From: Patescibacteria group bacterium
Lineage (GTDB): Bacteria; Patescibacteriota; Microgenomatia; Woykebacterales; JBBROZ01
Reading direction: 5' to 3'
Length of the DNA stretch: 46,939 bases
Assembly (NCBI GenBank): GCA_038228785.1
Contig: JBBROZ010000002.1
Coordinates: 1 to 46,939 of the forward strand
The notes beneath the pieces are model-generated. The model had not been told where the DNA came from. It was given only the letters and a program-made list of their open reading frames with translations, and ran no database searches. Of this stretch, positions 12,710 to 39,143 are shown piece after piece (the stretch's first letter is position 1; the number at the start of each line of letters is the position of its first letter). The position numbers and the translations under genes were made by a program.

Positions 12710-12718
12710 CGCCCACCT

Positions 12719-18000: not shown

Positions 18001-18708
18001 TTATTGTCCGGAAAATGGATCACTGCGACCCGATACTGACGGAGTCGTCGAAGCGGGGGCCGCGTAGATGGTTCTTTTTTGCAAATCAACCAACAGCTTT
18101 TCTTGCAAGGCGTTACGTTCGGGAAGAGAGTCTTCTAAATTAGCCGAGATATTGGCCAAAGGTTCGTAGTAACCTGTGATAGTGAGATCGGCTGATAATT
18201 TTTTGTCCTCACTGACATTGATGCTGATCGACTTCACCACCATCACCCGTCGGGCCGTCTCGATGCTGGTCAGGAAACCTTTGATATTAGCGAAGCCGCC
18301 TTTTATGATCACCTGGAAATTTAACGAGTTCTTTTCGCCTTTGGCAGCTGAAGTCACAAGTTGAGCGGTATCGACACTAGCCCCTGCTTTACCGGCAATC
18401 AAACTAAATTCGCCCAAAAACCCAGCTACATCCTTGTCGGATGGGATTGCGCCCGTCGTATTGACCAGCTCGCTAGTCAGCTTGGCCTGGTCCAGACCCT
18501 GCAAGGCTTTAGACTTAGTGTCCAGCGACTGCGATTTAACTCCGTCGGCGTCGGCTTGAGATTTGATCGTAACGATATCATTAATATTTGGCAACAGTAG
18601 AGTGAGAGCTATACCTAGTCCTATCACGGAAGCCCCGATGGGTAGGGCGTAGGGCAGGTAGGGCTGGTAGCGCGCTGGGATGCGGGCTTGCCAATCAGTT
18701 AGATTCAC
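18001..18708 (-). CDS. pilO: T4P alignment protein, PilO-like
   Basis: 235 aa. It has a single N-terminal TM helix, then a coiled coil and an alpha/beta C-domain. It lies immediately after pilN, with overlap. The call rests on architecture and synteny. Confidence 0.7.
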   Translation of the reverse strand: MNLTDWQARIPARYQPYLPYALPIGASVIGLGIALTLLLPNINDIVTIKSQADADGVKSQSLDTKSKALQGLDQAKLTSELVNTTGAIPSDKDVAGFLGEFSLIAGKAGASVDTAQLVTSAAKGEKNSLNFQVIIKGGFANIKGFLTSIETARRVMVVKSISINVSEDKKLSADLTITGYYEPLANISANLEDSLPERNALQEKLLVDLQKRTIYAAPASTTPSVSGRSDPFSGQ

Positions 18709-19265
18709 GGGGCCCCCTTCCTGGTCATAGATAAGGAGAAGCGGTAATCACCCTGCTTACCTCCACCGGCCACCGATATAATCTCGACATTACTGAATTT
18801 AGCGCCGCCTTTTTGGGGATCTTTTAAGACGTTAACAAAATCTCCAAAATTAGCCGGGGAAGAAGCTAATCCGGCCAAGGCTAATTTTCCGGCTGAATCA
18901 AATGACAGCGAGGTCAGAGTAACCCCATTCGGGGTAAAAGCGGCGATATCATCCAAAAGAGTTGAGAATTTGGGGTAATTGGCCAAAACTGACTGCAGAC
19001 GAATCAGTTTATTGTTGACGGTGCGATCTAGAATCTCCACTGATTTAAGACCAGTGATAGCTTTGCTGGAGGCATCGATTTTAGTTTGAAAAGCGGTGTC
19101 CTGGCTACGAAAGTAAGCGGCTCCAGCGTAACTTCCCAGCGTTAGAATGATAATAACGAGTAGAATCCCGGCCGAAGAAAGGGCTAGGACTTGTTTGCGC
19201 TGTTTGGTTCGTTCTTCTTCTCGGCCCTCTTCGGGCAGAAGATTTATTCCTGGGCTACTGGGCAA
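18705..19265 (-). CDS. pilN: T4P alignment protein PilN
   Basis: 186 aa. Conserved N-terminal INLLP motif, one TM helix, and a TTG start with a GAGGTG SD. Confidence 0.75.
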   Translation of the reverse strand: MPSSPGINLLPEEGREEERTKQRKQVLALSSAGILLVIIILTLGSYAGAAYFRSQDTAFQTKIDASSKAITGLKSVEILDRTVNNKLIRLQSVLANYPKFSTLLDDIAAFTPNGVTLTSLSFDSAGKLALAGLASSPANFGDFVNVLKDPQKGGAKFSNVEIISVAGGGKQGDYRFSLSMTRKGAP

Positions 19266-19327
19266 GAGGCACCTCGCTTTGTTCTTCCTTTAGGTTACCA
19301 GAGAGGGAGTAGTCGGGCAAGCCCTCG

Positions 19328-20371
19328 CTAGTTCGCAGAGAAATCTTTCTGGGCTAATCCAACGGCGATTGCGTAGAAGGCCCCGTCATCTTTGAATTCT
19401 GTTCCTAAGGCCGGGTTAAATGATAAGTCCTGCCAGGGATCGCCCAGCTGTCCTTCTAGACCCGTCAGCTCGGCCAGGTAGGGGATAAGGCCCGGCATTT
19501 TAGCACTTCCACCAGTCACCACCACTCTTTTGATGCTATCTTCAACGTGCTTGCCAGACCAAAAAGCAATGGCTCGCTTGACCTCGTTGCCAACCACATC
19601 AAAAATCGGTTTGATGGCGGAGGCGATCTTTCCTTCCAACTGCGTCGCGTCTAGACCGTAACTACGCTTGTATTCCTCAGCTTGGGAGGTCTCAAACCCC
19701 AGGTCTTGGGCAATGGCCCTGGTAAAAGCCAGCCCACCCGTGGCGATGGAGCGGGTAAAGACGATTTTTTTACTGCTGATCACTGATAGTTCGGTCGTCG
19801 AGGCGCCAATCTCTAGCATGAGAGTAGTCGGAGCGAATTGACTAGTTTCAAGTAAGGCCCTCGACGAAGCCGTGATCTCAGTTTCTAGGGCGTGTGGCTT
19901 AAGACCGGCCAAGTTTAGGATCTTAAGGTAACGGTTGATCAATACGTTAGGCGCTGCCACCAGTAACACTTCCATCTTTTTATCGGTTTGCCCGGCCTCG
20001 GGGCGTGTTAGAACCTGATAGTCGAGCTTGACGTCGCTCAAGGGGATCGGAATGTACTGCTCGGCTTCGTATTTGATTGCCGACTGGAGCTCGGAATCCG
20101 TCAGGGCGGACATCTCAATGACGCGGGTGAAGATTTGGGATTCAGGTAAGGAGGCCACGACGAAAGAGGTTGAGATCTTTGCTTCGCGGACCAGATTGCG
20201 AATCGACTCCGCCAGGGAGTGTTGATCAGCCTCTGATTCCGATAGAGCCCCGCGACTGGGAGTCGGGGCCATCCCAAGAGCCGTTAGTTCGTGTTTCCCA
20301 GATATTGGTTTAATTTCTGCAATTTTGATGAGCGTGGAGCCAATATCGAGGCCAAAGGTTGGGACAGACAT
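19328..20371 (-). CDS. pilM: T4P assembly ATPase-fold protein PilM
   Basis: Actin-like motifs FGLDIGSTLIKIAEI, LEIGASTTELSV and VVVTGGSAKMPGL. The start was moved to ATG 20371 (MSVPTFGLDIG), which removes the overlap with the upstream gene. Confidence 0.9.
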   Translation of the reverse strand: MSVPTFGLDIGSTLIKIAEIKPISGKHELTALGMAPTPSRGALSESEADQHSLAESIRNLVREAKISTSFVVASLPESQIFTRVIEMSALTDSELQSAIKYEAEQYIPIPLSDVKLDYQVLTRPEAGQTDKKMEVLLVAAPNVLINRYLKILNLAGLKPHALETEITASSRALLETSQFAPTTLMLEIGASTTELSVISSKKIVFTRSIATGGLAFTRAIAQDLGFETSQAEEYKRSYGLDATQLEGKIASAIKPIFDVVGNEVKRAIAFWSGKHVEDSIKRVVVTGGSAKMPGLIPYLAELTGLEGQLGDPWQDLSFNPALGTEFKDDGAFYAIAVGLAQKDFSAN

Positions 20372-20411
20372 ATAGGCTAATTGTAACCTGGTGGCAGGTT
20401 GGTGGCAACCA

Positions 20412-22262
20412 TCATGGGGCAAGCTCGATCCATCTTAAACGCAAACTTCCAGCCAACAGGTTGGCTAAGGCCGCGTTGCCGAAAATGGCCGTAGATAGGA
20501 TGAATTTATCGGCTGGGGTCGTCGAATTGGTAGATTTACCAAGGTCCCGATTGAGATCGTAGCCACCCATCGCCCAAGATGATCCATTAACGGTCAATTG
20601 ATTATTACCCGGCCCTCCGTTGTGATCGTCAAACTTGCCTTGTGAAAAGTACAGCCCGGCCATATTCTTGACCCCGCCGTCGACTAAAACATCACCACTA
20701 ACTACAAAAACGTAAGCCGAGGTAGGTTTCATGGCAAAATCGTAATAAACGGACAAATTGCCGTCAAAGAAGATAACCGCCGACACATCGGACGTAGCCA
20801 CACCTGCCGGCAAGGTGCCGCTGTCGATAGTGAAGTTGGAAGTAACTTTGTAGTATCCGGACCCGCTCCCGGGAAGCTTCCCACCGGGTAGAGCAAGGGA
20901 GGTGGCATAATATTTGGAACGCCAATCAGTATAAAGCTGGCTAGCCGCCAAGCCGAGCGGATAGTAGCTAAGTAACCAGTTTTTGGCGCTGGTAAGATTA
21001 CTGATTGATCCGGCCGAGCTGACTAGGTAGTCGGCGGTGGAGATAGAGGAGGGAGCGATATTGCCAACCGAGTGGATATCGCCGCCCTGAGTCTGAAACC
21101 AGGCCGAATTCAGGCACTGATCTCTGGAGCTAGTGTTGCCAGCGACATCCTGTATCTGGAAACGAAATTTCTTATTACATCCGGAGAAATCACTATTACA
21201 AAAATCGATATTGGGAGTCGACATGGTCGTGGAAACGGCCCCAGACCCGGACGGGTTTTGGGTGGTAGCTAGAAATTCGTCGGCAATCCAGGGGGAATTG
21301 CATTTGGTAACGTCGCTATGATGTCCCCAGGTAGTTCCCCCGTCTAACGAATACTGATACTGCCCAGTCGGAGTGGCTAACCCCGATAAACTATCATCAA
21401 CTGTAATATTGAAGCTAAAGGTATGGTCATTACCCCCATCGATTTGTTGAAAGTTGCGCCAATTGGCCGGACCCTGAGTGTCAAGCTTAAAATTAATATT
21501 TCTGGGCGCCTCTGCGACCCCGTCATTATTGGTTGCGAAATAGCTTAGGCTGTGACTACCATTGCTAGAAACTACGAAACCAACCTCAGGGGATAGCGGC
21601 TGTTCGGATAGTACAGCCCCGTCAAAGTTGACCGTTCCCGGCCCATCAATCCCTAGTTTAGGGAAGTATGATCCGGTAATAAGCGGGGAATAGCTAAGCT
21701 GCAAGCGCACCCAATTGCCCTGAGTCCCAGTCAGTGATGGGCTAGCCGAAGTATCTAAAAGCAACTTGACCCCATTTCCCAAAACGGAAGAGTATTTAAC
21801 CCAGACCGATAAGGTGTAGTTATGTCCGCTCGTCAGCAGGATTCCATTTTGGGTCTGCCAGTCTTTGTAACCTACATTGCTAGAGACTATCTTAACTGAG
21901 TTAGTGTCGAATTTGGCTGTCTGGAAGTCCTGAGAAAAAGTGGCCGAACCGGAGACCACCCAGCCGGTGACCGCGCCCGCTTCAAAGGATGGGTTGGGTA
22001 GGACGTTAACACCACTAGTAAAACTCTGGACGGTTTGGGCTCCATCTAGATTGTAAGTAATTGACTGGACCCCTGATTCCAGGTCGTCTGAGGCAATATC
22101 GACTGCTACGGTCGAGGTATACCAACCGTTATTGCCCAGGTTGCCGGTCAGAGTAGTGGTCGTAATGGGTGGGGTGCCGTCAGCTGCTCTGACGTTAAAC
22201 GAGGCGATTAGAAAAGCTACAGTTATGGGGAAAATTAAGAGTACTCGGGCAGTCCAGCGCAT
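20412..22262 (-). CDS. Secreted multidomain protein (616 aa): Ig-like modules, CBM-like beta-sandwich, conserved C-terminal domain
   Basis: Sec signal peptide (…FNVRA/ADG). Ig-like modules with NGWYTSTVAV...LDG and SLSG...YSLDGGTTWG motifs. A CBM4/9-like NPSFEAGAVTGW segment. The C-terminal 231 aa are homologous to the C-terminus of the 639-aa protein. Confidence 0.8.
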   Translation of the reverse strand: MRWTARVLLIFPITVAFLIASFNVRAADGTPPITTTTLTGNLGNNGWYTSTVAVDIASDDLESGVQSITYNLDGAQTVQSFTSGVNVLPNPSFEAGAVTGWVVSGSATFSQDFQTAKFDTNSVKIVSSNVGYKDWQTQNGILLTSGHNYTLSVWVKYSSVLGNGVKLLLDTSASPSLTGTQGNWVRLQLSYSPLITGSYFPKLGIDGPGTVNFDGAVLSEQPLSPEVGFVVSSNGSHSLSYFATNNDGVAEAPRNINFKLDTQGPANWRNFQQIDGGNDHTFSFNITVDDSLSGLATPTGQYQYSLDGGTTWGHHSDVTKCNSPWIADEFLATTQNPSGSGAVSTTMSTPNIDFCNSDFSGCNKKFRFQIQDVAGNTSSRDQCLNSAWFQTQGGDIHSVGNIAPSSISTADYLVSSAGSISNLTSAKNWLLSYYPLGLAASQLYTDWRSKYYATSLALPGGKLPGSGSGYYKVTSNFTIDSGTLPAGVATSDVSAVIFFDGNLSVYYDFAMKPTSAYVFVVSGDVLVDGGVKNMAGLYFSQGKFDDHNGGPGNNQLTVNGSSWAMGGYDLNRDLGKSTNSTTPADKFILSTAIFGNAALANLLAGSLRLRWIELAP

Positions 22263-22276
22263 AAATTAATCATACC

Positions 22277-22450
22277 TTACTTGACTGGTAGACCGGAGGC
22301 ACTGGCAGTATGGCTAGACGTGCAAGTAATAGTTTTGGGAACGGAAGTTATTTTACTAAGCTGATCGTAGGCCACCGAGTAACCGATTAATCCGGCGGTG
22401 AGACCTACCAGGAATAGGACGATAAAGCTGAGCGATCGTTCAAGAAGCAT
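22277..22450 (-). CDS. Possible 57-aa membrane micro-protein in the T4P operon
   Basis: Hand translation gives MLLERSLSFIVLFLVGLTAGLIGYSVAYDQLSKITSVPKTITCTSSHTASASGLPVK. It fills the only gap in the operon. It has one TM helix and no clear SD. Confidence 0.3.
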   Translation of the reverse strand: MLLERSLSFIVLFLVGLTAGLIGYSVAYDQLSKITSVPKTITCTSSHTASASGLPVK

Positions 22451-22456
22451 GAGGTG

Positions 22457-23296
22457 TCATTTGCTTAAGGGGTTGGTACTACCGTTAAACAAGACGTAAT
22501 CAAATATAGCGGGTAGGGAAGGGATCGCTCTGGTCACCTGAACTACTCTGGTCGCGGTATTGCCGGCGACTCCTCGGGAGGTGATGACATAACTTTGAGA
22601 TGGCAGCCCTGAGCCGGTAACGTTGATCGTGGTCTTATTGTAGAGGGGCCGCAGGCGCAGGGAAACGGCGTTGTCTGAGCTGGCGACGCTGACGGTCAGT
22701 TTATTGTGATATTTGGCGTCATCCGAAGTTGCCAAGTTAGTCACGGGACTGTCGCTGGCGCCAGTCGGCGTAAAATTATTACTGCGCGGATCAGCATTGA
22801 CGGCGTATTTACTAAGCGTGAAAACCCCGGCGCTGTTTTTGACCTCAGTCAGCTCCAGTGAAGCCCTTGATCCACCGGTATTCTCGGTAGTATCAGCCGT
22901 CGAGACCCAGTAGACATTGAGGGTCCCACTAAATCCTGACAGGTTGATTTGCACCGAATTATCCTGGACCACGGTTTGGGTGAAGGTTGGGGATTTGGCG
23001 ACGGTATACGAATAGGTGGTCAAATTATCGGTCGGGAACTTGGCCGCTGGAGCGCTATAAGTCCCGCTAGCCGTGATAGTCGCTAGATTTTGGCGCAGGG
23101 CTTCCTCAACTCCAGCCTCGGCGGCTGCGAAGGCCCGACTACTCTGATCGGAATTAGTCGAACTTTGTAAATCTTTGATCGTCCTAGTCGATAACGAAAG
23201 CCCGATCGTTAATCCGACTAGTAGTAAGATGAACACAAATACGGCCGTTTGGCCTGACTCTTTGATGGACATTAGTTTTATTTTACTACTTGGCAT
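22457..23296 (-). CDS. PilX-like pilus assembly protein (non-canonical minor pilin)
   Basis: 279 aa. Hydrophobic N-terminus GQTAVFVFILLLVGLTIGL followed by AFAAAEAGVEEAL, typical of PilX N-terminal domains. There is no Glu at +5. Confidence 0.65.
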   Translation of the reverse strand: MPSSKIKLMSIKESGQTAVFVFILLLVGLTIGLSLSTRTIKDLQSSTNSDQSSRAFAAAEAGVEEALRQNLATITASGTYSAPAAKFPTDNLTTYSYTVAKSPTFTQTVVQDNSVQINLSGFSGTLNVYWVSTADTTENTGGSRASLELTEVKNSAGVFTLSKYAVNADPRSNNFTPTGASDSPVTNLATSDDAKYHNKLTVSVASSDNAVSLRLRPLYNKTTINVTGSGLPSQSYVITSRGVAGNTATRVVQVTRAIPSLPAIFDYVLFNGSTNPLSK

Positions 23297-23825
23297 AACT
23301 TCTTATCTCCACTAGTTGACTAAAGGTTTGATTGCCGATGTACTCCGAATGAAGGGCTGAACCGGTGGTCTTAAGGACCATCACCACTCGAACTGTGGTC
23401 GGGGCGCTCCCAGTGGGTGGAGTAACGTCAAAGTAACTCTCGCCCACGGCCGGGTTGTTACAACTAGAACTAACTACTATTTTGCTAGTATTTACCTGGT
23501 TGGCATCTTTGGTCAGATTGCCGCAGTTGAAAGCGTAAACGCTGGTCGTTCCTCCCGAAGTGACCGAGATCGAGCCGACTTTCCCACTTCCCGTAATAAT
23601 ATCGGCGACTCTAAGAGCCCGCACCGTCGTTTCCATCATGTACTGACCATTCCCACGAATGTCGTTGGCCACGGTAGCTTTAACATTGGAGTTGATGATC
23701 TGGACAAATAAGGCCGAGATGAGCGTTAGCAAAATCCCGGTCACGGCGATAACGGCCGTCAGCTCAATCAGTGTAAACCCAGACTGGGATTTGAGCGGCC
23801 GAAGTAAGTTTTTCACGGGGCCCAC
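23286..23825 (-). CDS. Prepilin-type minor pilin
   Basis: 179 aa. Class III signal with cleavage/methylation motif G/FTLIELTAVIAV (Phe+1, Glu+5). Confidence 0.8.
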   Translation of the reverse strand: MGPVKNLLRPLKSQSGFTLIELTAVIAVTGILLTLISALFVQIINSNVKATVANDIRGNGQYMMETTVRALRVADIITGSGKVGSISVTSGGTTSVYAFNCGNLTKDANQVNTSKIVVSSSCNNPAVGESYFDVTPPTGSAPTTVRVVMVLKTTGSALHSEYIGNQTFSQLVEIRSYAK

Positions 23826-24262
23826 TTGGTCAGATAGCTAACCAGCTGAACGACTTCGTTTTTGCCTTTGTCGATCCATTTGACCTGAACGTCGACTTGG
23901 ACCCGGTCATTATTGGTAGTGGGGGAGCTGGCGTTGGTAAACCTGATCTCTCTAGTGTAAACCGAGGTAATTCCCGTGTCAGTTGAGGTAACCAGCGTAT
24001 TGTTGGTTCCGATATGCCAAACACTGGCGTTGACGTAGGTCGGATAGAAACTCGCCCAGCTATTCTTATCCCTAGTCAACCTGGCCACTTCTAACCCCTC
24101 CTCAGCATACCTGGTAGCAGTGGTGCGGGATTTAGCAGCGGTCGATGAGGCGATGGCCGAAACCACCATCCCTACGATCGCCGAGACGATGACCGAAGCT
24201 AGGCCAATGGCCACTACCGATTCCACTAAAGTTGACCCGCGCTGGCTCCTAAGTAAGCTCAT
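23813..24262 (-). CDS. Prepilin-type minor pilin (Ser at +1)
   Basis: 149 aa. QRG/STLVESVVAIGLASVIV with Glu+5. Confidence 0.75.
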   Translation of the reverse strand: MSLLRSQRGSTLVESVVAIGLASVIVSAIVGMVVSAIASSTAAKSRTTATRYAEEGLEVARLTRDKNSWASFYPTYVNASVWHIGTNNTLVTSTDTGITSVYTREIRFTNASSPTTNNDRVQVDVQVKWIDKGKNEVVQLVSYLTKWAP

Positions 24263-24795
24263 TCGATCCTCCCGGTCGCTTGGAAAATCTGGACATTTTG
24301 TGTTCCGGTCCCTGTGACATTGATCGCGACCGCCCCATCCCCTGCGGGAGCGACCTCGGCGGGGGGCGTGGTCCCAACGGCGGAGCTGTCAAAAAACTTG
24401 ACTAACGATTTGTTCTCAGTAAAGACGATGAATTTGACGCTTGGTGTAGTGGTGACGCTAACCCCAACTGGGTAGTTGTTGGTATTAAGAATAGTCGGAT
24501 TGGCGAAGGACCCCGGCTGTCCGTCAGCGACCTTCTCGATGCGAACGAACTGGTAAGAATTGGAGTTGATCACAACTCCGTAGTAAGCGGCCGGTAACCC
24601 AGCTGAATTTAGTTTACTAACCAAAGCCTGCTCCTGGGCATTACGAAGCGCTCCTTTAATCTCGAGTCCCACGTTCCTAGTGTTCTCACGGCCATTAACA
24701 CCGCGTAGTCCCAGGAAAGCAATTCCCGCCAAAATGCCGATGATCGATATCGCCACGATTAGTTCAATTAAGGTGTAGCCTTTTGACGAGCTCAT
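24259..24795 (-). CDS. Prepilin-type minor pilin (Tyr at +1)
   Basis: 178 aa. SKG/YTLIELIVAISIIGILAGIA with Glu+5. Confidence 0.8.
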   Translation of the reverse strand: MSSSKGYTLIELIVAISIIGILAGIAFLGLRGVNGRENTRNVGLEIKGALRNAQEQALVSKLNSAGLPAAYYGVVINSNSYQFVRIEKVADGQPGSFANPTILNTNNYPVGVSVTTTPSVKFIVFTENKSLVKFFDSSAVGTTPPAEVAPAGDGAVAINVTGTGTQNVQIFQATGRIE

Positions 24796-26711
24796 GGAAC
24801 GATTTCACTCCAGTTGTACAACGATTCACCGATGAGCGGGGCGAACTTGGTAATGTCGTTATTATATTGAAAAGCTTCTGAGGGCAGGGCTGTGTTGGAG
24901 TTGACCCGGCCCAGGTTGATCCCGCCGTACGCCGCCACTCCACCTGAATCAGTCAGTTGGGTACTGCCAGACCCGTCCGAATAGCTCCCAGTGGATATGT
25001 AGTAACCATCGGCCTGAGAAACAGAGGAGGCGACATTGACATTACCCGAGACGATCCAGATGATGAAACCTCCACCTCCGACAGCAACCTTATCGCCCAC
25101 GGTCAGATTGACCGGGGTTCCGTCTAGAGCGTTAATGAAAACGACCAGTAATTTGCCCCCATTTACATTGATCGGAGTATTGAAAGTCACCGTATTACCT
25201 GAGATCGGGCGGATCGCTAAGACGACCGGATCAGTCCCGCTCGCCTGTAGATCACCTGAGGTGATCGAGTTGGCGTTAAGGGTAGTGACGACCTTGTCTT
25301 TGAGCCGGCTCCAGAAGTAATCGTGATCATAGCGGGTGATTTTCGATACGTAATTGGTCACTTTCCAACTCCTAATATTGATCTTGCCCGCCGATAAGCT
25401 AATATCGCCAGCCGAGGAGACGACCCCGTATTGACTTGGGTTGAAGTAAGGATAAGCAGCCGGATAGTTAGCGTCGGCCAAACCGGTAATTGATCCGACT
25501 GAATAAACCGAGGCCCCACCAGCAGTAATGAAGCGGGGCGCACAGTTATTGGAAACGGCGGTACGGACAGTACCACAGTTACTGGTCTCGGTACCGTTGT
25601 ATGGATTAACACAATTCCAAGTTGTATCAGCACAGGGACAGGCTTGGCTATTACAAGCTTGAGTAGTGCCATCTGAGCAAGACTGGGTCCCTCCGCCACA
25701 ACCAACTGAGCAAGCGCCACAAGTGACGGAGCAGGCCTGGGTATTACAAGCTCGACTAGAGCCATCTGAACAAGACTTGATACCTCCGCCGCAACTAGCT
25801 GAGCACGCTCCACAAGTAGCAGGGGCGCAGGCCTGGCTATTACAAGCTTGAGTAGTGCCATCTGAACAAGACTTGATACCTCCGCCGCAACTAGCTGAGC
25901 ACGCTCCACAAGTGACGGAGGGGCAGGCTTGGGTATTGCACGCCGCCCCGCTAGAACTACATACCCCACTTCCACATGACTTGGAACAGGTGCCGCAAGT
26001 GACCACAGGAATAGGACAGGACGCTGTATCAGTAATACAGCCGTTATCTCCTCCACAATTATTACAAGACCCACAAGCGTCCTGTTTTCCAGACCAACAT
26101 TTCACACCGGTGTTTTGGCCACTAGCGTCAGTTTGACAAATAACTAGACAGCCAGCTCCCGTAGCAGCGCACCTAGTCCCAGCTACACAATCCCCGCCGC
26201 ACGACCCCGTGGATGCTACACATGAACCTCCAGAACAAGTAGTATTGGGACCGCAATTTTTTTCTGTGTGGGCCACTAAAACTGGAGCGTTACACGCCGT
26301 TCCCGCAGAATTACAAAACGGCTGATAGTTAGCTACCGTACATGCGCCAGAACAAAAGTCGGCTCCTCCAGGACAACCGACATCAGCATTAGGTGTGCAT
26401 ACTTGAGACGGAGCTCCACAGGATGTGGTCGCACAATTGGAGGTGTCATAACAGGTTCCATCGGAAAATAAAGTGCCGTCCGATTGACAAGCAAAAACCT
26501 CAGTCCCAGTACAGCACGAGCTGATAGTACAAGTGTGTTTCTCGGTCGTCCCAGGGGTACAAGCTACGGCGCTGCTAACCGGCAGGGAGGTACCGTTGAT
26601 GATGACCCGACCTGATAAAACTAAAACCAGCAAGATGAAAATTGGAAGAAAAACTGCTAAGAAGTACGTTCCAAAAGAAGGGAGAAAACGCGCAAGTTGC
26701 CGGGAGATCAT
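24792..26711 (-). CDS. Membrane-anchored cysteine-rich repeat protein (639 aa) with TSP1-like 6-Cys repeats and conserved C-terminal domain
   Basis: N-terminal TM helix. A ~340-aa ectodomain with roughly 55 Cys (hand count), including four tandem repeats TCGxCSxxCGxGxxSCSDGxxxACNxQAC. The C-terminal 247 aa are Cys-free and homologous to the C-terminus of the 616-aa protein. Confidence 0.85.
   Translation of the reverse strand: MISRQLARFLPSFGTYFLAVFLPIFILLVLVLSGRVIINGTSLPVSSAVACTPGTTEKHTCTISSCCTGTEVFACQSDGTLFSDGTCYDTSNCATTSCGAPSQVCTPNADVGCPGGADFCSGACTVANYQPFCNSAGTACNAPVLVAHTEKNCGPNTTCSGGSCVASTGSCGGDCVAGTRCAATGAGCLVICQTDASGQNTGVKCWSGKQDACGSCNNCGGDNGCITDTASCPIPVVTCGTCSKSCGSGVCSSSGAACNTQACPSVTCGACSASCGGGIKSCSDGTTQACNSQACAPATCGACSASCGGGIKSCSDGSSRACNTQACSVTCGACSVGCGGGTQSCSDGTTQACNSQACPCADTTWNCVNPYNGTETSNCGTVRTAVSNNCAPRFITAGGASVYSVGSITGLADANYPAAYPYFNPSQYGVVSSAGDISLSAGKINIRSWKVTNYVSKITRYDHDYFWSRLKDKVVTTLNANSITSGDLQASGTDPVVLAIRPISGNTVTFNTPINVNGGKLLVVFINALDGTPVNLTVGDKVAVGGGGFIIWIVSGNVNVASSVSQADGYYISTGSYSDGSGSTQLTDSGGVAAYGGINLGRVNSNTALPSEAFQYNNDITKFAPLIGESLYNWSEIVP
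25641..26010. repeat. Tandem 93-96 bp coding repeats (about 4 units)
   Basis: Units start at 25641, 25734, 25830 and 25926 (the last is degenerate). Units 2 and 3 share an identical run CATCTGAACAAGACTTGATACCTCCGCCGCAACTAGCTGAGCACGCTCCACAAGT. Units 1 and 3 share GGCTATTACAAGCTTGAGTAGTGCCATCTGA. Confidence 0.85.
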
Positions 26712-27223
26712 TTATTGAATATACCGATGTCCCTAACGACGTAATCCGAGAGACCGGTTCCCACTATCGGCGGCGAGACTTGAGCACGGATAAACGATCC
26801 TACTTTGAAATCCTTAAAGGTGATCGTTCTGGAATCAAGATGTGTCGCGTCATACATAATCGCGCCCTTTTTTAGCTTTACAACTAACAGATAGGTCCGG
26901 TCTTTGACCGTCAGCGTAGAGTCATTCGGATCAATCGCTATTATCGTACCCGCGAGAGTCCCACGCCAATCGTAGAAAATACGATTGGATAATGTTTCTA
27001 TAGATAACGGACTAATTTTTTGTAGCTCCGCTTTAGAGACATAACCTTGAGATGATTGATAAATGAGAGCTGAGGCAAAACCAACCGCCGTAAATACAAG
27101 TGCAGTTAGTACCATCAAAACGGGCTTGCTGGTTAAAGCTGAGAATCGACCGTAAGCGCTAGCGTAAACCTTAGTTGTAGTAGGCGAGGCCGGAAAGTTC
27201 GAAGTTTGAGCAGTCTCTGGCAC
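26708..27223 (-). CDS. Membrane-anchored hypothetical protein, first gene of the T4P minor-pilin operon
   Basis: 171 aa. GTG start with a GGAGGG SD. TM helix PVLMVLTALVFTAVGFASALIY and a beta-rich C-terminal domain. The stop overlaps the next gene. Confidence 0.7.
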   Translation of the reverse strand: MPETAQTSNFPASPTTTKVYASAYGRFSALTSKPVLMVLTALVFTAVGFASALIYQSSQGYVSKAELQKISPLSIETLSNRIFYDWRGTLAGTIIAIDPNDSTLTVKDRTYLLVVKLKKGAIMYDATHLDSRTITFKDFKVGSFIRAQVSPPIVGTGLSDYVVRDIGIFNK

Positions 27224-27344: not shown

Positions 27345-27929
27345 TTAACGTGGCTGAACTGAGAATCTGATACTAAGGTTACGGTTTACGACTAGGGGGG
27401 TAGCAGAGGCACAGTTGGGAGTACCGTTGTACCACCAGTTACCAAACTTGGCCGTTTCGCTTCCCCGAGAGGCAATCCCCATCAGGTATGTTCCCGCTGG
27501 AACACCTTGGATGAGGTACGTTCCGTCGGTTGACTGCACCGTCGTTCCCGCTGTCGGGAAAGGCTGGCCAGTCTGCGCCAAGCTAGTGCAAAGATCCGGA
27601 GTCATCGCGTACAAATACACCGTGTATGACGTGACCGGCGCGCCCGTCGTGGCGTAAGTGGCATTACCGCTGACCGAGTACTTTGCCGCTACCGGCGGGA
27701 CCGTCGGTGCCGGGGTCGGAGCAACCGTTGGAACCGCTGTTGGAGTCTCCGTTGGCACGACTGTCGGAGCCACGGTAGGTGTGATAGTCGTCGTAGCTGA
27801 AGCGGTGTTGGTCGGAGGACTGGTGCGAGTTGCTGTTGCGACCGAAGTCGGAGAAGCCACGCTAGCTGGACTGCTGCAGGCCATACCTACAAGCAGAGAC
27901 AGGGATGCGGCGAACCAATGAGCGCGCAT
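27345..27929 (-). CDS. Secreted/lipoprotein-like protein with Thr/Pro/Ala-rich linker and beta-sandwich domain
   Basis: Start moved to ATG 27929 (MRAHWFAASLSLLVGMAC...), which has a GAGGAAAGG SD. Long TPTVAPT-type linker. The C-terminal segment TDGTYLIQGVPAGTYLM resembles carboxypeptidase-regulatory-like folds (unverified). Confidence 0.7.
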   Translation of the reverse strand: MRAHWFAASLSLLVGMACSSPASVASPTSVATATRTSPPTNTASATTTITPTVAPTVVPTETPTAVPTVAPTPAPTVPPVAAKYSVSGNATYATTGAPVTSYTVYLYAMTPDLCTSLAQTGQPFPTAGTTVQSTDGTYLIQGVPAGTYLMGIASRGSETAKFGNWWYNGTPNCASATPLVVNRNLSIRFSVQPR

Positions 27930-28079
27930 CTGATCTACCTTTCCTCGCCCGTAGGCGTTCTGGTACCCTAATTTTTGAGCACCAATTTTATCCCATAGTT
28001 TACAGTAGGCCTCTAAAATTGTCAAGATAAAGGGAAACGGAGTGCTCCAGTTTTGGAAACACTCCGTGCGAGATCGCGA

Positions 28080-29195: not shown

Positions 29196-29237
29196 GTCAC
29201 ACCTCTCTCTTTCTTTGTGCGATTTGGATTTGGTTGG

Positions 29238-29265
29238 ATTATAGCTCTCCAAGCCGGATTTGCAA
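29238..29265 (-). promoter_or_regulatory. Candidate promoter of gene 28080..29195
   Basis: Minus strand: TTGCAA (29265-29260), 16-nt spacer, perfect TATAAT (29243-29238), ~40 nt upstream of GTG 29195. Confidence 0.5.
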
Positions 29266-29304
29266 ATAAGCAACCGCCAGGCTCAGTACTGATAAAATAA
29301 AGTT

Positions 29305-30655: not shown

Positions 30656-30658
30656 TAA

Positions 30659-30937: not shown

Positions 30938-30988
30938 TGGGCGTATCTTACTACTATATATTTGAAAAGTAAAAATCAGGAAAAAGAA

Positions 30989-31018
30989 AAACGCCTCAAA
31001 TTTTCATTTAAGGCGTTT
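30989..31018 (-). terminator. Rho-independent terminator after gene 31017..31469
   Basis: Stem AAACGCCT (30989-30996)/AGGCGTTT (31011-31018) overlapping the stop codon. On the minus strand it is followed by TTTTTCTTTTTCC. Confidence 0.6.
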
Positions 31019-33987: not shown

Positions 33988-35241
33988 ATGTTAAAAATCA
34001 CCAAATTACCCTCGGGATTAAAAATAGCTACTTATAAAATAGATCGGAAGGCTGCGGCAATTTCCTTCAGTTTTAAAGGTGGGAATCGTAACGAAACCCC
34101 AACAGAATTAGGAACAGCTCATTTCCTAGAGCACATACTTCTTAAAGGAAGTAAAAAATACCCATCTCCAAAGTTAGTTAAAGAATCAGTTCAATCACTC
34201 GGAGGAAATATCGGAGGTGTTACCGATAATGAGCAAACAGTTTTCCATAGTCGAATTCTTCTTGAAAATATTGACCAACCGCTTGATACCTTAACGGATA
34301 TCATCCAATTTCCACTCCTGGACCCGGTCATAATAGAACGTGAGAAAGAGATAATAAAGGAAGAGTATAATCGCTACAACAATAACTTCGAGAGACGAGC
34401 CTTTCAGTTTGGGTCTGAACTGTTGTGGCGAGGGCATCCTCTAGGCAAACCGATTGATATTTGGGCGTTGGATAACTTAGTCAATATTACTCCCCACTCA
34501 ATTAAAGAATTTATGAGTAAGCACTATATATTTGATAATTGTGTAGTCATGATAGTTGGTAATGTGGATCATGAGGAATGGGTTGAAAAAGTGTCTAACA
34601 AATTTGACTCAATAAGTAATAAAGGTGCCGAGATCAGTCCAGTTCTAAAAAAACTACCGGGAATTCAATTTAAAGGCGAGGTCAGGGATACCAAGCAAGT
34701 TAACCTAAATGTAAGCTTCTATGCTCCTGGATTTCAAAACGAAGACCGGTTCGCTGTAAGGATTGCCAACTCTATTTGGGATTTAAGGATTATAAATAAC
34801 CTGCGCTATGAACATGGATTATCTTATTCCCCAGGTACTAGTTTTAATCCGTACCAAGAATTAGGCGCCTGGCGGGTATCTGGTGAGTTTAAATCTGGAT
34901 CGCTCAAAGAATCGACGGGAGAGATACTTAAGGAAGCCAAATTATTGTCTTCCAGTATTCCAACTGAGCAAGAGTTAGTATCGGCTAAGGCTCGAGTAAA
35001 AAGTGGTTTGGTCTTTTCTAGCGAAAGTGTTTTATCTATCCGAGATAATTACGCCGAAAAAATACTTCTGGATATTAAACCTTTAGAGATGGAAGAAGTA
35101 ATAAATCATTACGAGAAAGTATCCGTCGAGGATGTTAAACGGGTAGCGAAAATATATCTAACTGATGATTTCAAGGTATCCGCAGTCGGACCCGTAGCTG
35201 ACATTAACGAATTAGAGAAACTTTACGGAAAATCTAGCTAA
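33988..35241 (+). CDS. M16 (pitrilysin/insulinase) family zinc peptidase
   Basis: Inverted zinc motif HxxEH in TAHFLEHILLKGS. The start is set to ATG 33988 (MLKITKLPSGLKI) based on the promoter geometry. AT-rich. Confidence 0.85.
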   Translation: MLKITKLPSGLKIATYKIDRKAAAISFSFKGGNRNETPTELGTAHFLEHILLKGSKKYPSPKLVKESVQSLGGNIGGVTDNEQTVFHSRILLENIDQPLDTLTDIIQFPLLDPVIIEREKEIIKEEYNRYNNNFERRAFQFGSELLWRGHPLGKPIDIWALDNLVNITPHSIKEFMSKHYIFDNCVVMIVGNVDHEEWVEKVSNKFDSISNKGAEISPVLKKLPGIQFKGEVRDTKQVNLNVSFYAPGFQNEDRFAVRIANSIWDLRIINNLRYEHGLSYSPGTSFNPYQELGAWRVSGEFKSGSLKESTGEILKEAKLLSSSIPTEQELVSAKARVKSGLVFSSESVLSIRDNYAEKILLDIKPLEMEEVINHYEKVSVEDVKRVAKIYLTDDFKVSAVGPVADINELEKLYGKSS

Positions 35242-36154
35242 ATAGATGTAGGGTCAGAAACCACCTAAACAAAGAATCGCCCATAAACATCGTCGCTAGC
35301 ACCCCGGTCACTAGAAACGGCGCTAGGGGAATGAGCTGACGCATCTGCTTCTTACGACTAAGCACTAAACCGATCCCGACAACCGCCCCGAAGGCAAACC
35401 CGATGTACATCGCGGTCACGAGATGCGGCCAAGGAATCACCAGTCCCAAGAAGATCGCTAACTTGATATCCCCACCACCCATGGCCCGTTCGTTACTTAG
35501 ATACACGATCGCGTAGAAAATCCCGGCTAGGACTAGTCCGGCGAGAGCCCCGTACAAAATCGGCGATGCTATCTCCATAGTGTGGGTCTGGATAAATTTG
35601 GGGTCGGCGAGAAGTTGGGGACCAAACTGCAGCCGAGCCGTTAAATCACGAAAAGCTTTGACCGATAGACCGATTTTTAGGGCGCCCAGTATCACGGCTA
35701 TGACAATCGCCGGTAAAACTACCTTATCCGGAATCTCCATAAACTTGAGATCGTAGACGAGAAGTATCACTAGGAAAGTAATGAAAATGAGCTGAGAGGC
35801 GAGAGCGATGCTGTCGACTAGCCCGAGCGTCAGATTGTCGAGCCCAAAGTATTGGAAGAATGTGGCCGCGAACAGTAGTCCCGTCCCCAGCTCCACCAAG
35901 GGGTACTGAATGGAAATCGGCTCATGACAATAGCGACATCTCCCACCCAAAATCACAAAGCTGACCAGAGGGATATTATCGAGTATCGAAAGCTGATGCT
36001 TACAATTGGGACACATGCTCCGGGCGCGCCGGAAAGGCAACTGGTTACGCAGCCGATACACCAGCGCATTAATGGTCGAGCCGATAGCGGTTCCAAAGAT
36101 AAAGACAATAATCAGTATTAAAAAATTCATAAAGTAATCTAGCCGAAGTCCCAA
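35234..36154 (-). CDS. pilD: Prepilin peptidase / N-methyltransferase PilD (A24 family)
   Basis: CPNCKH...CRYCHE zinc motif, catalytic Asp contexts MEIPDKV and GGGDIKL, and multiple TM helices. The start is either TTG 36154 or ATG 36130 (MNFLILII). Confidence 0.9.
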   Translation of the reverse strand: MGLRLDYFMNFLILIIVFIFGTAIGSTINALVYRLRNQLPFRRARSMCPNCKHQLSILDNIPLVSFVILGGRCRYCHEPISIQYPLVELGTGLLFAATFFQYFGLDNLTLGLVDSIALASQLIFITFLVILLVYDLKFMEIPDKVVLPAIVIAVILGALKIGLSVKAFRDLTARLQFGPQLLADPKFIQTHTMEIASPILYGALAGLVLAGIFYAIVYLSNERAMGGGDIKLAIFLGLVIPWPHLVTAMYIGFAFGAVVGIGLVLSRKKQMRQLIPLAPFLVTGVLATMFMGDSLFRWFLTLHLFS

Positions 36155-36184
36155 TACTTTTGGATCGCCTGCTACTAAAAAGAT

Positions 36185-36204
36185 GAGGGGGCCGAAGCCC
36201 CCTC
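36185..36204 (-). terminator. Terminator/attenuator after the major pilin gene
   Basis: GAGGGGGC (36185-36192)/GCCCCCTC (36197-36204) with a 4-nt loop (CGAA on the plus strand). On the minus strand it is followed by ATCTTTTTAG. Confidence 0.65.
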
Positions 36205-36211
36205 AAGGTCC

Positions 36212-36721
36212 CTACGGGGCGACGGTGGGTTCAGTCGTTTGCAGTCCAGCTGAGCCTTTAGCGTCGATGAAGTAGACCCCACCGTTCGAGGTGGGATTCT
36301 CCATGATCGCCCAGAGCACGTAACTACTTCCCGTGTTGGAGGTAGCGTTACTTAGGTACTTGTACAAACAAGCTTGAGCCGCCGCGGCAGTACTGATTTT
36401 ACAGTTACTAGCAGCATTTTGCGGATCGGTCAGGACTTTGGGCATGTACGATTTGGAGACTAACTCTCCAGCCGTCGTATAGATCCCAGCTCCAGCACCG
36501 GCGGTTGAATCACCAGTTCCAGCACTACCTGGGTAAACCTGAAGATCGGCGTAATACCTCTCCATAGCCGTACGGTAAGTCGAGATGTCAGATTTTCTCT
36601 GAGCATCACGAGCCGATTTCTGGACTCCGGTTAGGGAGACCAAGGCAACTGAGGCGAGAATACCAATCACCGCGATCACAACCATAAGTTCGATTAGGGT
36701 GAAACCTTTGTTTCGTTTCAT
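36212..36721 (-). CDS. pilA: Major type IV pilin
   Basis: Track ORF trimmed to ATG 36721, behind the AAGGGGGGTGAG SD. Sequence MKRNKG/FTLIELMVVIAVIGILASVAL (Phe+1, Glu+5). C-terminal Cys pair NCKISTAAAAQAC. Confidence 0.9.
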   Translation of the reverse strand: MKRNKGFTLIELMVVIAVIGILASVALVSLTGVQKSARDAQRKSDISTYRTAMERYYADLQVYPGSAGTGDSTAGAGAGIYTTAGELVSKSYMPKVLTDPQNAASNCKISTAAAAQACLYKYLSNATSNTGSSYVLWAIMENPTSNGGVYFIDAKGSAGLQTTEPTVAP

Positions 36722-36791
36722 ATTCTCACCCCCCTTCAGATGGATTTGACTGATAAATTTTGAATTCGAGGTCATGTAGTTTGGCAGCCCT

Positions 36792-38003
36792 CTATTTAAT
36801 AACGTTAACGAGGTTAAACATTGGAAGCAGGATCGCCAGGGCCAACCCAGCAACACCTATTCCCATCACGATAATCATAATCGGCTCAAGAGCTGTGGTC
36901 AAATTCTTGATACGTTGATCGCTCTCCTGCTCGAAGTAAACGGCCAGCTTGGTCAATACATCATCAAGATGTCCAGTCTCTTCACCAATCGCGACCATCT
37001 GCCCGATAATTGGTGGGAAACTTTTGTTAGCTTGCAAGGGCCCAGATAGCCTGGCACCTTTTTCCACCTGAACTGCCGCCGCTTCCAATCCGTCGGCGTA
37101 AACGTTTTTCCCGACCGTATCCCTGGTAATTCGCAAACCTTCCAGGATCGGGATTCCTGATCCCACCAAGGCTCCAAAAGTCCGCACCAAGATAGCGAAA
37201 GTGACCATTTTATTTAATGGACCGAAGACGGGCAGTCGGTAACCCAAATCACTTAAAAACTTGCCACCCTTGGGGGTAGCGCGAAATCTTTTGAAAGCGA
37301 TATAGGCCCCAATCGCAACTATCGGCATGAAAATGATAGTCGCCTGCACCACGTTACTGATAAAAATAAGGATCAAAGTTGGAAGAGGTAAATCGGCGCC
37401 TAGGGAGTTGTAGACCTCGGAGATACGGGGGATCACTAGCACCATCATGGCCAGTCCAATTAGCACCATCGCCCCCGAAACTATCGCCGGATAAAGTAGA
37501 GCGCCTTTGATCTTGCCCTTGAATTCTCGTTCCTGCTCCATCTGCTCGGCTAAGCGGTTTAGGATTTTGTCCATGGATCCCGAAGCTTCACCGGCTCTAA
37601 GTAAGGCAATATAAATGTTAGGGAAAACGTCCGGGTACTTGGCCAGGGCGCTACTCAGCTGTGTTCCAGACTCAACCTCGCGCAGGGCGCTAGCTAACAC
37701 GGCTTTGAGCTTGGGATTAGTGACCTGTTTTTGCATGATACTTAGAGAGTCGGTCAGGGGTAATCCAGCCGCAATCATAGTGGCTAGTTGTCTCGTGAAA
37801 CTGGCTTTATCACCAATCGATACTCCTTGGAAACGCTCGAAGGTCCCCTGAAAAGAGAGTGCGTTATTGAATAGCTCAATTTTGATCGGAACGAGATGCT
37901 TATCTTTTAGAAGTGACGAAACCTGATTCTCGTCGGAAGCCTCGGCGTTGCCATTAACGATCCGTCCCGATTCGTCTTTGGCCTGGTATGAATACTTAGC
38001 CAC
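36792..38003 (-). CDS. pilC: T4P platform protein PilC (GspF family)
   Basis: 403 aa. Two GspF-type repeats and three TM segments. The start overlaps the pilT stop. Confidence 0.92.
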   Translation of the reverse strand: MAKYSYQAKDESGRIVNGNAEASDENQVSSLLKDKHLVPIKIELFNNALSFQGTFERFQGVSIGDKASFTRQLATMIAAGLPLTDSLSIMQKQVTNPKLKAVLASALREVESGTQLSSALAKYPDVFPNIYIALLRAGEASGSMDKILNRLAEQMEQEREFKGKIKGALLYPAIVSGAMVLIGLAMMVLVIPRISEVYNSLGADLPLPTLILIFISNVVQATIIFMPIVAIGAYIAFKRFRATPKGGKFLSDLGYRLPVFGPLNKMVTFAILVRTFGALVGSGIPILEGLRITRDTVGKNVYADGLEAAAVQVEKGARLSGPLQANKSFPPIIGQMVAIGEETGHLDDVLTKLAVYFEQESDQRIKNLTTALEPIMIIVMGIGVAGLALAILLPMFNLVNVIK

Positions 38004-39069
38004 GGCCAGCCCCCTTGACCAAACGGTTCAGCTCTTCGGTTCTAATGGTGTGAGACAAGGCCATTTCGTAACTGATAGTTCCAGCTTTGACCAACGTGGC
38101 CAGCGAGGACTCAAGTAGGATCATCCCCTGAGCGGCTGAGGTTTGGATCACGTTGTCGATCAGGTGAGTCTTACCGTCTCTAATCAGTGAGCGAATGGCC
38201 CCGTTGGCCATCAGGATCTCGACCGCCGGAACCCGTCCACCTGAGATCGCCGGGATCAAGCGTTGACTGACGATTCCTTCTAGGATCGAGGCCAATTGCT
38301 GGCGGACTTGGGCCTGCTGGTGTTCGGGGAAGACATCGATGATCCGGTCGATGGTTTGGGAGGCAGAATTGGTGTGTAAAGTGGCAAATACTAAGTGCCC
38401 GGTCTCGGCAATGGTCAAAGCGGCGCTGATGGTCTCGTAATCACGCATTTCCCCAATCAAGACGACATCAGGGTCTTCACGAAGTGCACTTCTTAGGGCG
38501 ATTTCCCAGGAATGAGTGTCTAAATGCAATTCTCGTTGAGCGATCAAAGCCCTTTTGACCGGATAGACGTATTCAATCGGATCTTCGATAGTTAGGATGT
38601 GGTTACTTCTGGTTTCATTGATCTGATTGATGAGCGCCGCTAAGGTGGTTGATTTACCCTGGCCAGTCGGGCCGGTCACCAGGATCAGTCCTTGGGGCAT
38701 CTCAGCGAAACGGGAGATGATCGGCGGGAGTTTGAGCTCTTCGATGGTCCGTATTTTGACTGGGATGAGACGCAGGGCCGCCGCCAGGTAACCTTTTTCG
38801 TAGAAAGCATTGACCCGGAACCGAGCGACTTCACCCAAGGCAAATGAGAAATCGACCTCTTTGTTGGTGAGAAGCAGATCTTTTTGCTCGGGGGAAGTCA
38901 TCTCGAAAACCAGGGCCTCAACCCTAGCGCTAGTCAAAACGTCTTCACCCGAGATCGGACGAAGTTCCCCGTCAATTCTGACCACTGGTAGGGCCCCCAC
39001 AGTCAGATGCAAATCCGAGGCATCGTGGGAAATAGTGTATTCAAGGTATTTTTGGATCTCTAGTGGCAT
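37996..39069 (-). CDS. pilT: T4P retraction ATPase PilT
   Basis: 357 aa. Walker A GPTGQGKSTT, ILTIEDPIE, LIGEMRD, GHLVFATLHT and the PilT-type AIRSLIRDGKTHLI. Confidence 0.92.
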   Translation of the reverse strand: MPLEIQKYLEYTISHDASDLHLTVGALPVVRIDGELRPISGEDVLTSARVEALVFEMTSPEQKDLLLTNKEVDFSFALGEVARFRVNAFYEKGYLAAALRLIPVKIRTIEELKLPPIISRFAEMPQGLILVTGPTGQGKSTTLAALINQINETRSNHILTIEDPIEYVYPVKRALIAQRELHLDTHSWEIALRSALREDPDVVLIGEMRDYETISAALTIAETGHLVFATLHTNSASQTIDRIIDVFPEHQQAQVRQQLASILEGIVSQRLIPAISGGRVPAVEILMANGAIRSLIRDGKTHLIDNVIQTSAAQGMILLESSLATLVKAGTISYEMALSHTIRTEELNRLVKGAGRG

Positions 39070-39143
39070 ATTACTTTACGAAACCTCTGGTTGAGTAAAG
39101 CAAGGAGTCAAATAAAGATTTATCAAAATATAAATTTGACATG

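Follow-up and report, generated by a model that had tools for sequence, protein, structure and literature searches.

Cultivated Patescibacteria live attached to other microbes, and type IV pili are the best-supported attachment organelles (PMC11623550). In Nanosynbacter lyticus TM7x (Saccharibacteria), PilX1 and PilX2, two large accessory proteins that are encoded in the pilus locus and have non-canonical signal peptides as well as additional domains at the C-terminus, were proposed to be pilus adhesins (PMC11623550). Here, we analyzed a C-terminal domain (CTD) that is shared by two large proteins, A (616 amino acids, aa) and B (639 aa), encoded in a minor-pilin operon of a Patescibacteria group bacterium (GenBank assembly GCA_038228785.1, contig JBBROZ010000002.1, positions 1 to 46,939 of the forward strand). 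This whole stretch of 46,939 nucleotides (nt) is referred to as the window. Outside the Saccharibacteria, we know of essentially no adhesins on the pili of Patescibacteria.

Close counterparts are the PilY1/PilC proteins of the type IVa pili of Pseudomonas, Myxococcus and Neisseria; these are large, are not pilins and have their genes behind pilX in the minor-pilin operon. Some PilY1/PilC homologues of Neisseria are encoded away from the pilin genes. Protein A is likewise a large non-pilin and occupies PilY1's classical position after a PilX-like gene. Its gene precedes pilM, and this placement is kept in three further operons (L021, L101 and L102). PilY1/PilC and the family described here also have in common a conserved CTD and a variable, often adhesive N-terminus (VWA in some members). 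Two other systems combine a solenoid with a pilus. In Caldicellulosiruptor, beta-helix proteins termed tapirins (e.g. Calkro_0844) have their genes beside a pilus locus (bioRxiv 10.1101/359786). ComZ, the competence tip pilin of Thermus thermophilus (6qvi), contains a solenoid; ComZ was proposed to act as pilus cap and receptor and binds the neighboring pilin PilA2 (PMC6561018).

Results

The C-terminal domains of A and B are homologous

Both genes are located on the minus strand, and their CTDs were delimited with hidden Markov models (HMMs):

20412..22262, minus strand: gene A, open reading frame (ORF) of 616 aa
24792..26711, minus strand: gene B, ORF of 639 aa
20415..21110, minus strand: CTD of protein A, aa 385-616 (leave-out HMM; AlphaFold2; Foldseek)
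24795..25547, minus strand: CTD of protein B, aa 389-639 (leave-out HMM, aa 394-639; family HMM envelope, aa 389-639)

An initial annotation of the window had proposed, from motifs aligned by eye, that A and B share a C-terminal domain of about 230-250 aa behind unrelated N-terminal parts. When the full proteins were compared by BLASTP, the sole significant alignment was obtained between aa 502-616 of A and aa 535-639 of B (32% identity, E = 8e-8), while nothing significant was found between the N-terminal parts (E >= 3), in line with their being unrelated. Smith-Waterman alignment of the last 231 aa of A with the last 247 aa of B gave a score of 132 (z = 12.5; 1000 shuffles, mean 41.8 +/- 7.2). 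For the N-terminal half of the CTD alone, z was 2.3 and the score was attained by 30 of the 1000 shuffles, so that, taken alone, the motifs matched by eye in this half lack significance. Full-length homology was instead obtained from profiles. An HMM built from 44 family members, from which every A-like and B-like sequence had been left out, matched aa 385-616 of A (model positions 3-246, E = 4e-41) and aa 394-639 of B (model positions 6-246, E = 1e-46). In addition, an HMM made from A-like members only detected aa 399-639 of B (E = 4e-17), and one made from B-like members only detected A (E = 2e-14).

Taken together, these alignments confirm at the sequence level that the CTDs of A and B are homologous over the full length of the domain, and the coordinates first given for them were right to within a few residues. 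Chance or compositional similarity was excluded by the shuffles and the leave-out HMM. A recent duplication giving rise to A and B was rejected as well, because the two CTDs fall into separate deep clades of a neighbor-joining tree. At their extreme C-termini the translated proteins read RWIELAP (A) and NWSEIVP (B).

The domain is predicted to be an ice-binding-protein-like beta-solenoid

The initial annotation had suggested that the fold be classified with AlphaFold and Foldseek, and this yielded a beta-solenoid whose closest matches are ice-binding (DUF3494) proteins. The AlphaFold2 model of the CTD of A, calculated with an alignment of 64 family members, reached a mean predicted local distance difference test score (pLDDT) of 91.2 and a predicted template modeling score (pTM) of 0.86; it consists of short stacked strands and a 15-residue helix (domain residues 58-72). 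A Foldseek search of the PDB gave nothing at E < 1e-3. The nine best matches were all ice-binding proteins of the DUF3494 type (E = 8e-3 to 0.18, template modeling score (TM) 0.23-0.43), with 6eio at the top (E = 8e-3, TM 0.43), and were followed later by tapirin C-terminal domains (4wa0, 6n2b) and by Thermus ComZ (6qvi). Among predicted viral structures (BFVD), the top match was again a DUF3494 protein (E = 2.7e-4).

At the sequence level, weak matches to the Pfam family DUF7305 (PF23981) were obtained for 18 of the 64 members, all below the gathering score (best E = 5.6e-6). One member, P0152, came close to the cut-off (25.7 bits, gathering cut-off 27 bits) and was the only one to match Ice_binding/DUF3494 (PF11999; 18.9 bits, gathering cut-off 28.7 bits). 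No DUF7305 or Ice_binding match was found in the CTDs of A and B in Pfam at E <= 10, and sequence searches of solved structures returned nothing relevant and no sequence relative. Each of the two proteins is best explained as ending in a beta-solenoid of 232-251 aa, probably right-handed, that belongs to the ice-binding-protein-like (DUF3494/DUF7305) fold class. Rather than being an orphan fold, the domain is most likely a diverged offshoot of a fold class already known and is remotely related to the DUF3494/DUF7305 solenoids.

The comparison with these relatives and with the pilus proteins introduced above reveals both likenesses and differences. DUF3494/DUF7305 solenoids, the best structural matches, may share with the present domain a long helix that flanks the solenoid. 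Distinctive of the present family are the motifs WxQxxGGD and WxEVAP-COOH and its strict placement at the C-terminus. The tapirin matches (4wa0, 6n2b) were weak (E = 0.34-2.5, TM ~0.2), and no sequence similarity to tapirins was found in the search of solved-structure sequences. With 11-14 turns and about 350 aa, the tapirin helix is larger than the present domain of about 235-250 aa, and it binds cellulose itself, whereas A carries a separate carbohydrate-binding module (CBM). ComZ (weak Foldseek match, E = 0.5-1.2) is comparable in that a beta-solenoid goes with a minor-pilin complex, as may be the case for A and B. However, its solenoid is inserted in a pilin fold with an N-terminal pilin helix, while A and B start with Sec-type N-termini and are devoid of a pilin domain. 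The saccharibacterial PilX1 and PilX2 have pilin-like 'lollipop' N-termini and C-terminal beta-jelly-roll and beta-propeller domains, not this solenoid. The CTD of PilY1 is a beta-propeller (Neisseria_PilC, PF05567) without relation in sequence or fold to the present beta-solenoid. Neisseria_PilC did not match A or B in Pfam even at E <= 10, and no propeller was among the Foldseek matches; since neither Pfam, the AlphaFold model nor Foldseek gave a propeller, A and B were rejected as PilY1 homologues. Unlike PilY1, the present family is mostly found outside pilus loci.

The domain defines a large family with a conserved C-terminal end

An exhaustive profile search without word index, in which both CTD segments were compared with 1.84 billion representative proteins, retrieved 1279 proteins at E <= 1e-3, of which 281 reached E <= 1e-10 and 5 reached E <= 1e-30. 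Profile positions 2-271 are spanned by many of the 1279 matches, and this number is a lower bound, counted as clusters at 50% identity. The family was revealed by this search and not by word-indexed searches, which returned no matches with the 231-aa CTD of A and merely 5 and 7 proteins with family alignments. A scan of viral contigs for the family gave no matches. The source names encountered for members were all uninformative ('hypothetical protein', 'Uncharacterized protein' and once 'PPC domain-containing protein', which refers to a different domain), and the organisms named were the Microgenomates group, Collierbacteria and Pacebacteria/Paceibacterota. The initial annotation had not recognized the domain as a named family, and indeed the CTD in A and B had no Pfam or NCBIfam match even at lenient thresholds. 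In the literature, neither a description of the domain nor a mention of DUF7305 or PF23981 was found.

In the 64-sequence alignment, AWFQTxGGDVHS is located near the start of the domain, followed by an invariant-like W and YxYF. Solenoid-type repeats come next (VxFVxGxLxI, FLAFIVSGNIxVDPxV, GIYxADG and QLxVxGSxVAxGGxxLxRDL), and the end is marked by N..TPAExFxYxPD and then WxEVAP at the very C-terminus. Within this terminal motif, W-x-E-[VIL]-x-P, both W and E are present in 63 of the 64 members. The polar residues R190, N197 and E231 are near-invariant, and D13 and Q8 are also conserved.

The position of the domain is also constant. Among the 150 best matches, the CTD ends at most 12 aa from the C-terminus in 146, whereas the part in front of it can be as short as 13 or as long as 1213 residues. 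Of 116 gene models (Met start, >= 250 aa), 94 have a hydrophobic segment at the N-terminus that resembles a signal peptide, and none has a C-terminal anchor. Pfam matches in the N-terminal parts of 75 members comprised VWA (4), CBM_4_9 (4), fn3 (3), Hint (2) and DUF11 (2), and Big_2 and PPC occur in individual members. Differing display modules in front of a shared domain, as first described for A and B, are thus seen across the family. The N-terminal architecture of A, with or without the CBM insert, was present in about 24 of the 150 best matches and that of B in 2. What is new is a large unnamed family, apparently centered on the Patescibacteria, with a diagnostic C-terminal WxEVAP and a recurrent presence in minor-pilin operons. 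The fold class is already known, as are pilus-locus accessory proteins that combine a conserved C-terminal domain with variable N-terminal modules.

The taxonomic labels in L001-L013 and L104 appear unreliable. Some of the contigs are labeled 'uncultured Pseudomonadales', although all other names for this family come from Microgenomates and Collierbacteria. In another case, the label of a cluster mate of P0084 is Bathyarchaeia, yet its contig encodes a bacterial L11-L1-L10-L7/L12-NusG-SecE cluster.

N-terminal parts and secretion of A and B

Protein A starts with a Sec signal peptide (aa 1-26, ...VRA/ADG), followed by an immunoglobulin (Ig)-like module of the OmpL47 type (aa ~28-85), a CBM_4_9 module (aa 86-~225), two more beta-sandwich modules in the AlphaFold model (aa ~226-384) and the CTD. 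The Ig-like and CBM-like modules that had been assigned to A were recovered by matches to the OmpL47-type Ig-like barrel (aa 48-87, E = 9.5e-7) and to Pfam CBM_4_9 (aa 86-159, E = 5.9e-6). In the AlphaFold model of full-length A, all modules are all-beta with a per-domain pLDDT of 80-95, and the pTM of 0.43 is as would be expected for beads on a string.

In protein B, a hydrophobic N-terminal segment (aa ~14-33) precedes a Cys-rich region (aa ~50-388) and the CTD. B had no match to any Pfam or NCBIfam family. The Cys-rich repeat array ascribed to it was found as a tandem repeat:

25634..25937, minus strand: 96-nt tandem repeat in the N-terminal part of B (Tandem Repeats Finder; 3.2 copies, 82% matches)

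In translation, the repeat encodes Cys-rich units of 32 aa (…CGACSASCGGGIKSCSDGTTQACNSQAC…). Their CSxSCGGG core is reminiscent of thrombospondin type-1 repeats, and Pfam did not detect it. The N-terminal length of B-like proteins elsewhere varies widely, from about 220 to 410 aa, and those of L102 and L103 have ordinary Sec signal peptides.

Neither A nor B has an N_methyl match in Pfam or the prepilin motif G[FY]T[LI]IE. Pilins were therefore rejected as an identity for the two proteins, which have Sec-type N-termini. Their sequences are best explained if A and B are exported by the Sec pathway and serve as accessory proteins in a type IV pilus system that has no secretin.

The genes reside in a minor-pilin operon

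A and B are part of one minus-strand operon with the order 171-aa membrane protein, B, three prepilins, PilX-like protein, A, PilM, PilN and PilO. The following further genes were assigned:

26708..27223, minus strand: 171-aa single-pass membrane protein (ORF; stop overlaps the start of B by 4 nt)
23286..24795, minus strand: three minor prepilin genes of 178, 149 and 179 aa (Pfam N_methyl and G[FY]TLIEL motifs)
22457..23296, minus strand: PilX-like minor pilin-like protein of 279 aa, directly upstream of A (PilX_N)
18001..20422, minus strand: pilM, pilN and pilO, directly downstream of A (PilM_2, E = 8.5e-55; PilN, E = 6e-7; PilO, E = 3.2e-7)
35234..40931, minus strand: core pilus genes pilB, pilT, pilC, major pilin and pilD (Pfam families)

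The prepilins of 178, 149 and 179 aa match N_methyl with E values of 1e-8, 1.7e-3 and 2.6e-6. The PilX_N match of the 279-aa protein (E = 7.7e-4) is below the Pfam cut-off, and the position and sequence of this protein are kept in L021, L101-L103 and L107. A homologue of the 171-aa membrane protein (E = 6e-12) is encoded upstream of the B-like gene of L102. About 8 kb lie between the minor-pilin operon and the core pilus genes (T2SSE with MshEN, T2SSE, T2SSF, N_methyl and Peptidase_A24 with A24_N_bact). A secretin gene was not seen within the window. This pilus gene set, together with the named relatives of the family (Microgenomates, Collierbacteria and Pacebacteria), points to a probable member of the Patescibacteria (candidate phyla radiation, CPR).

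Three clades of the family adjoin minor-pilin or PilX-like genes

Operons of the window type have the order [B-like]-pilin-pilin-pilin-PilX-like-[A-like]-PilM-PilN-PilO. Besides the window, four were found, all through similarity to A or B: L101 (B-like 543 aa, A-like 615 aa) and L102 (B-like 475 aa, A-like 638 aa) encode both proteins, L103 only a B-like one (553 aa) and L021 only an A-like one (36-40% identity). At least one of the two genes is thus kept in all five window-type operons. A metagenome scan with full-length A-like proteins recruited loci by the N-terminal motifs GNLGNNGWY and NPSFE and detected the domain in 1 of 80 loci, which was L021. A third clade, that of P0033, adjoins a PilX-like gene at its 3' end (L107 and L108). 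The gene of P0033 is convergent with this PilX-like gene, the last one of a large pilus cluster, and ends 4 nt from its 3' end. In a neighbor-joining tree, the A-like, B-like and P0033-like CTDs form three separate deep clades among clades without pilus linkage.

The domain-pilus gene association is strongly enriched, but it is not exclusive, and by count most members are encoded outside pilus loci. By a rough estimate that was not computed, pilus neighbors would be expected for no more than a few per cent of random genes. Although the domain is thus not specific for pili, it is still plausible that A and B have a role in the pilus, because three clades abut pilin or PilX-like genes and all five window-type operons keep one of the two genes.

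Several peculiarities were observed around the solenoid genes. In L103, which is devoid of an A-like gene, the PilX-like protein is longer (12685-13764; 359 aa compared to 279-304 aa), and a sortase gene is located near the pilus cluster. In L021, which is devoid of a B-like gene, a membrane-anchored rhodanese-like ORF is located between the PilX-like and A-like genes. The solenoid gene is often preceded by a small single-pass membrane ORF (150-330 aa) that overlaps its start by about 4 nt (the window, L001, L002, L003, L008, L014, L021, L102, L107, L110 and L111); in L101 and L103 a membrane-anchored Tricorn_N-like beta-propeller is found instead. The small ORF may encode a partner or may only reflect the packing of compact genomes. 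A conserved partner family among the small membrane or large upstream proteins was rejected, as no homology was detectable across clades. In at least two clades (P0123/P0153-type and P0031; L019, L020 and L105/L106) the solenoid gene is found beside a prolyl-tRNA synthetase gene with S21, YbeY and DnaX nearby, a conserved non-pilus neighborhood. L110 contains two large solenoid-family genes (5402-9532, 1376 aa, and 10824-14207, 1127 aa) and no pilus gene; with two copies within 14 kb of each other and no pilus gene present, the family is multi-copy within genomes independently of pili.

Discussion

A proposed attachment role of the solenoid

Because these proteins are secreted and have no C-terminal anchor, the solenoid is the only feature common to all of them by which they could be kept at the cell. 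As it is the only common element and its motifs are strongly conserved, it is most simply read as an attachment module with a conserved partner. Surface attachment, the pilus as receptor and an adhesive role are inferred. The conserved solenoid would serve as a shared 'foot' by which the secreted proteins are attached to some extracellular structure of the cell. For the operon-embedded clades (A-like, B-like and P0033-like), the tip of the pilus would provide this structure, in the form of the minor-pilin/PilX-like priming complex. The pilus would thereby bear A and B as alternative adhesins, A presenting its CBM_4_9 glycan-binding module and B its Cys-rich repeats. Members encoded elsewhere would attach with the same foot, be it to the pilus or to a different component of the envelope. 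That A and B are pilus-borne adhesins whose solenoid docks on the minor-pilin/PilX-like complex follows the docking hypothesis of the initial annotation; we advance this reading tentatively, as possible but somewhat short of probable, and for the operon-embedded clades only.

Genomic distribution provides the first set of observations that weigh against such a role. In 14 loci of a different clade from species-representative genomes (L001-L014), no pilus gene or prepilin motif was found, and the neighbors in the six fully flanked loci of this clade (about 9 kb upstream and 10 kb downstream) were housekeeping genes. Of eight members sampled regardless of similarity to A or B (six chosen for long contigs, P0031, P0033, P0050, P0067, P0084 and P0146, and two obtained by homologue search, P0123 and P0153), only P0033 had pilus genes nearby, and the other seven had none. 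No pilus gene was detected within at least 5 kb on both sides in L001-L003, L008, L012, L014, L104 and L109, seven of which had flanks of 9-10 kb, nor within the shorter flanks of L019, L020, L105, L110 and L111. The initial annotation had linked the domain to pilus loci and their minor pilins. Three clades indeed abut such genes, but the majority of the members sampled are encoded elsewhere (pilus genes in one of eight sampled members and in none of the six fully flanked loci), so that specificity for pilus loci did not hold.

The proteins themselves provide the second set. The N-terminal regions had been proposed to be exchangeable modules, and they do vary across the family. In the B-like clade the N-terminus (35-41% identity) is far more variable than the solenoid (47-75%). 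In A-like orthologues, however, the identities of N-terminus and solenoid were 68 and 62%, 60 and 56%, and 40 and 37%; as conserved as the solenoid, the A-like N-terminus behaves within this clade unlike a freely exchangeable module. P0123 and P0153 consist of a signal peptide and the solenoid and nothing else, which indicates that the solenoid has a function of its own. Finally, the fold matches to ComZ and the tapirins were weak (E = 0.3-2.5, TM 0.2-0.34) and may reflect only generic solenoid geometry.

A broader version of the attachment role would make the solenoid a Patescibacteria-wide 'universal handle' with which varied binding modules, once secreted, are plugged onto the tip complex of the type IV pilus. 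In function it would correspond to the C-terminal domain of PilY1, but with an unrelated fold, and the dispersed paralogues would constitute a swappable repertoire of pilus-tip adhesins for hosts or substrates. We regard this extension as distinctly unlikely.

Other explanations for the solenoid

The roles of the two ends could also be reversed. The solenoid would then be the ligand-binding end of a tapirin- or ice-binding-like adhesin that binds polysaccharide or a host-cell surface and does not dock on the pilus. The N-terminal modules would be spacers or auxiliary binders, and A and B surface or secreted adhesins that are co-expressed with the pilus. This would agree with the minimal proteins of signal peptide and solenoid, with the many members encoded away from pilus genes, with an A-like N-terminus that is no more variable than the solenoid and with the best fold matches, ice-binding proteins and tapirin C-terminal domains, in which the solenoid face is the binding surface (bioRxiv 10.1101/359786). 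We nevertheless consider it somewhat unlikely: WxQxxGGD, RDL, N..PAE and WxEVAP-COOH are strongly conserved across very different proteins and the domain is fixed at the extreme C-terminus, which is more typical of one common partner than of a diversifying ligand binder, and the recognized binding modules (CBM_4_9, VWA) sit in the N-terminal parts. A common partner could also be a general constituent of the cell envelope, such as the cell wall, the S-layer or a small membrane protein, to which the solenoid would anchor its cargo without any specific relation to the pilus; presence in the pilus operon would then reflect only the co-regulation of surface proteins. The constant C-terminal position behind variable N-terminal cargo does resemble a sorting or anchoring architecture, the majority of loci are without pilus genes, and in many of them, as with B, a small single-pass membrane ORF overlaps the start of the gene. 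However, these small upstream proteins belong to no detectable common family, and overlaps of 4 nt are common in compact genomes. It is also hard to explain without a pilus link that three clades abut PilX-like or minor-pilin genes and that every window-type operon keeps an A-like or a B-like gene, and a general envelope anchor seems quite improbable to us.

If the solenoid were catalytic, it might be a glycan lyase or hydrolase of the kind seen in many beta-helix enzymes and in phage tailspikes, and the CBM, fn3, PPC and Ig-like parts would be accessory modules such as secreted enzymes usually have. Enzymes typically carry a CBM ahead of a conserved C-terminal domain, and in favor of this reading are also the near-invariant polar residues R190, N197 and E231 with the conserved D13 and Q8. 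The best Foldseek matches were non-enzymatic ice-binding proteins, though, with pectate-lyase-like enzymes and tailspikes appearing only at E > 3, and no enzyme family was found in Pfam, NCBIfam or the sequence search of solved structures; an enzymatic role is highly improbable.

With one conserved C-terminal solenoid, highly varied binding modules and three clades in or against minor-pilin operons, a family has been defined. If the solenoid is the element of attachment to the pilus or surface, it would offer a direct handle on host and substrate specificity and would represent a second, structurally unrelated solution to the job of PilY1. If it is not, the definition of the family, the assignment to an ice-binding-like fold and a corrected view on pilus specificity would still stand. 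A demonstration that the solenoid docks on the pilus tip would make the family far more interesting.

Other features of the window

Several probable secreted proteins are encoded between the minor-pilin operon and the core pilus genes (27345-33705), none of which carries the solenoid domain. Two of them, of 226 and 724 aa, have linkers rich in Pro and Thr, and the larger one (31531-33705) has an Ig-like N_BRCA1_IG domain (E = 8e-13). In addition, ribosomal protein S16 (16482-17087) has 201 aa and a C-terminal tail of about 110 aa that is rich in Thr, Pro, Glu and Ala.

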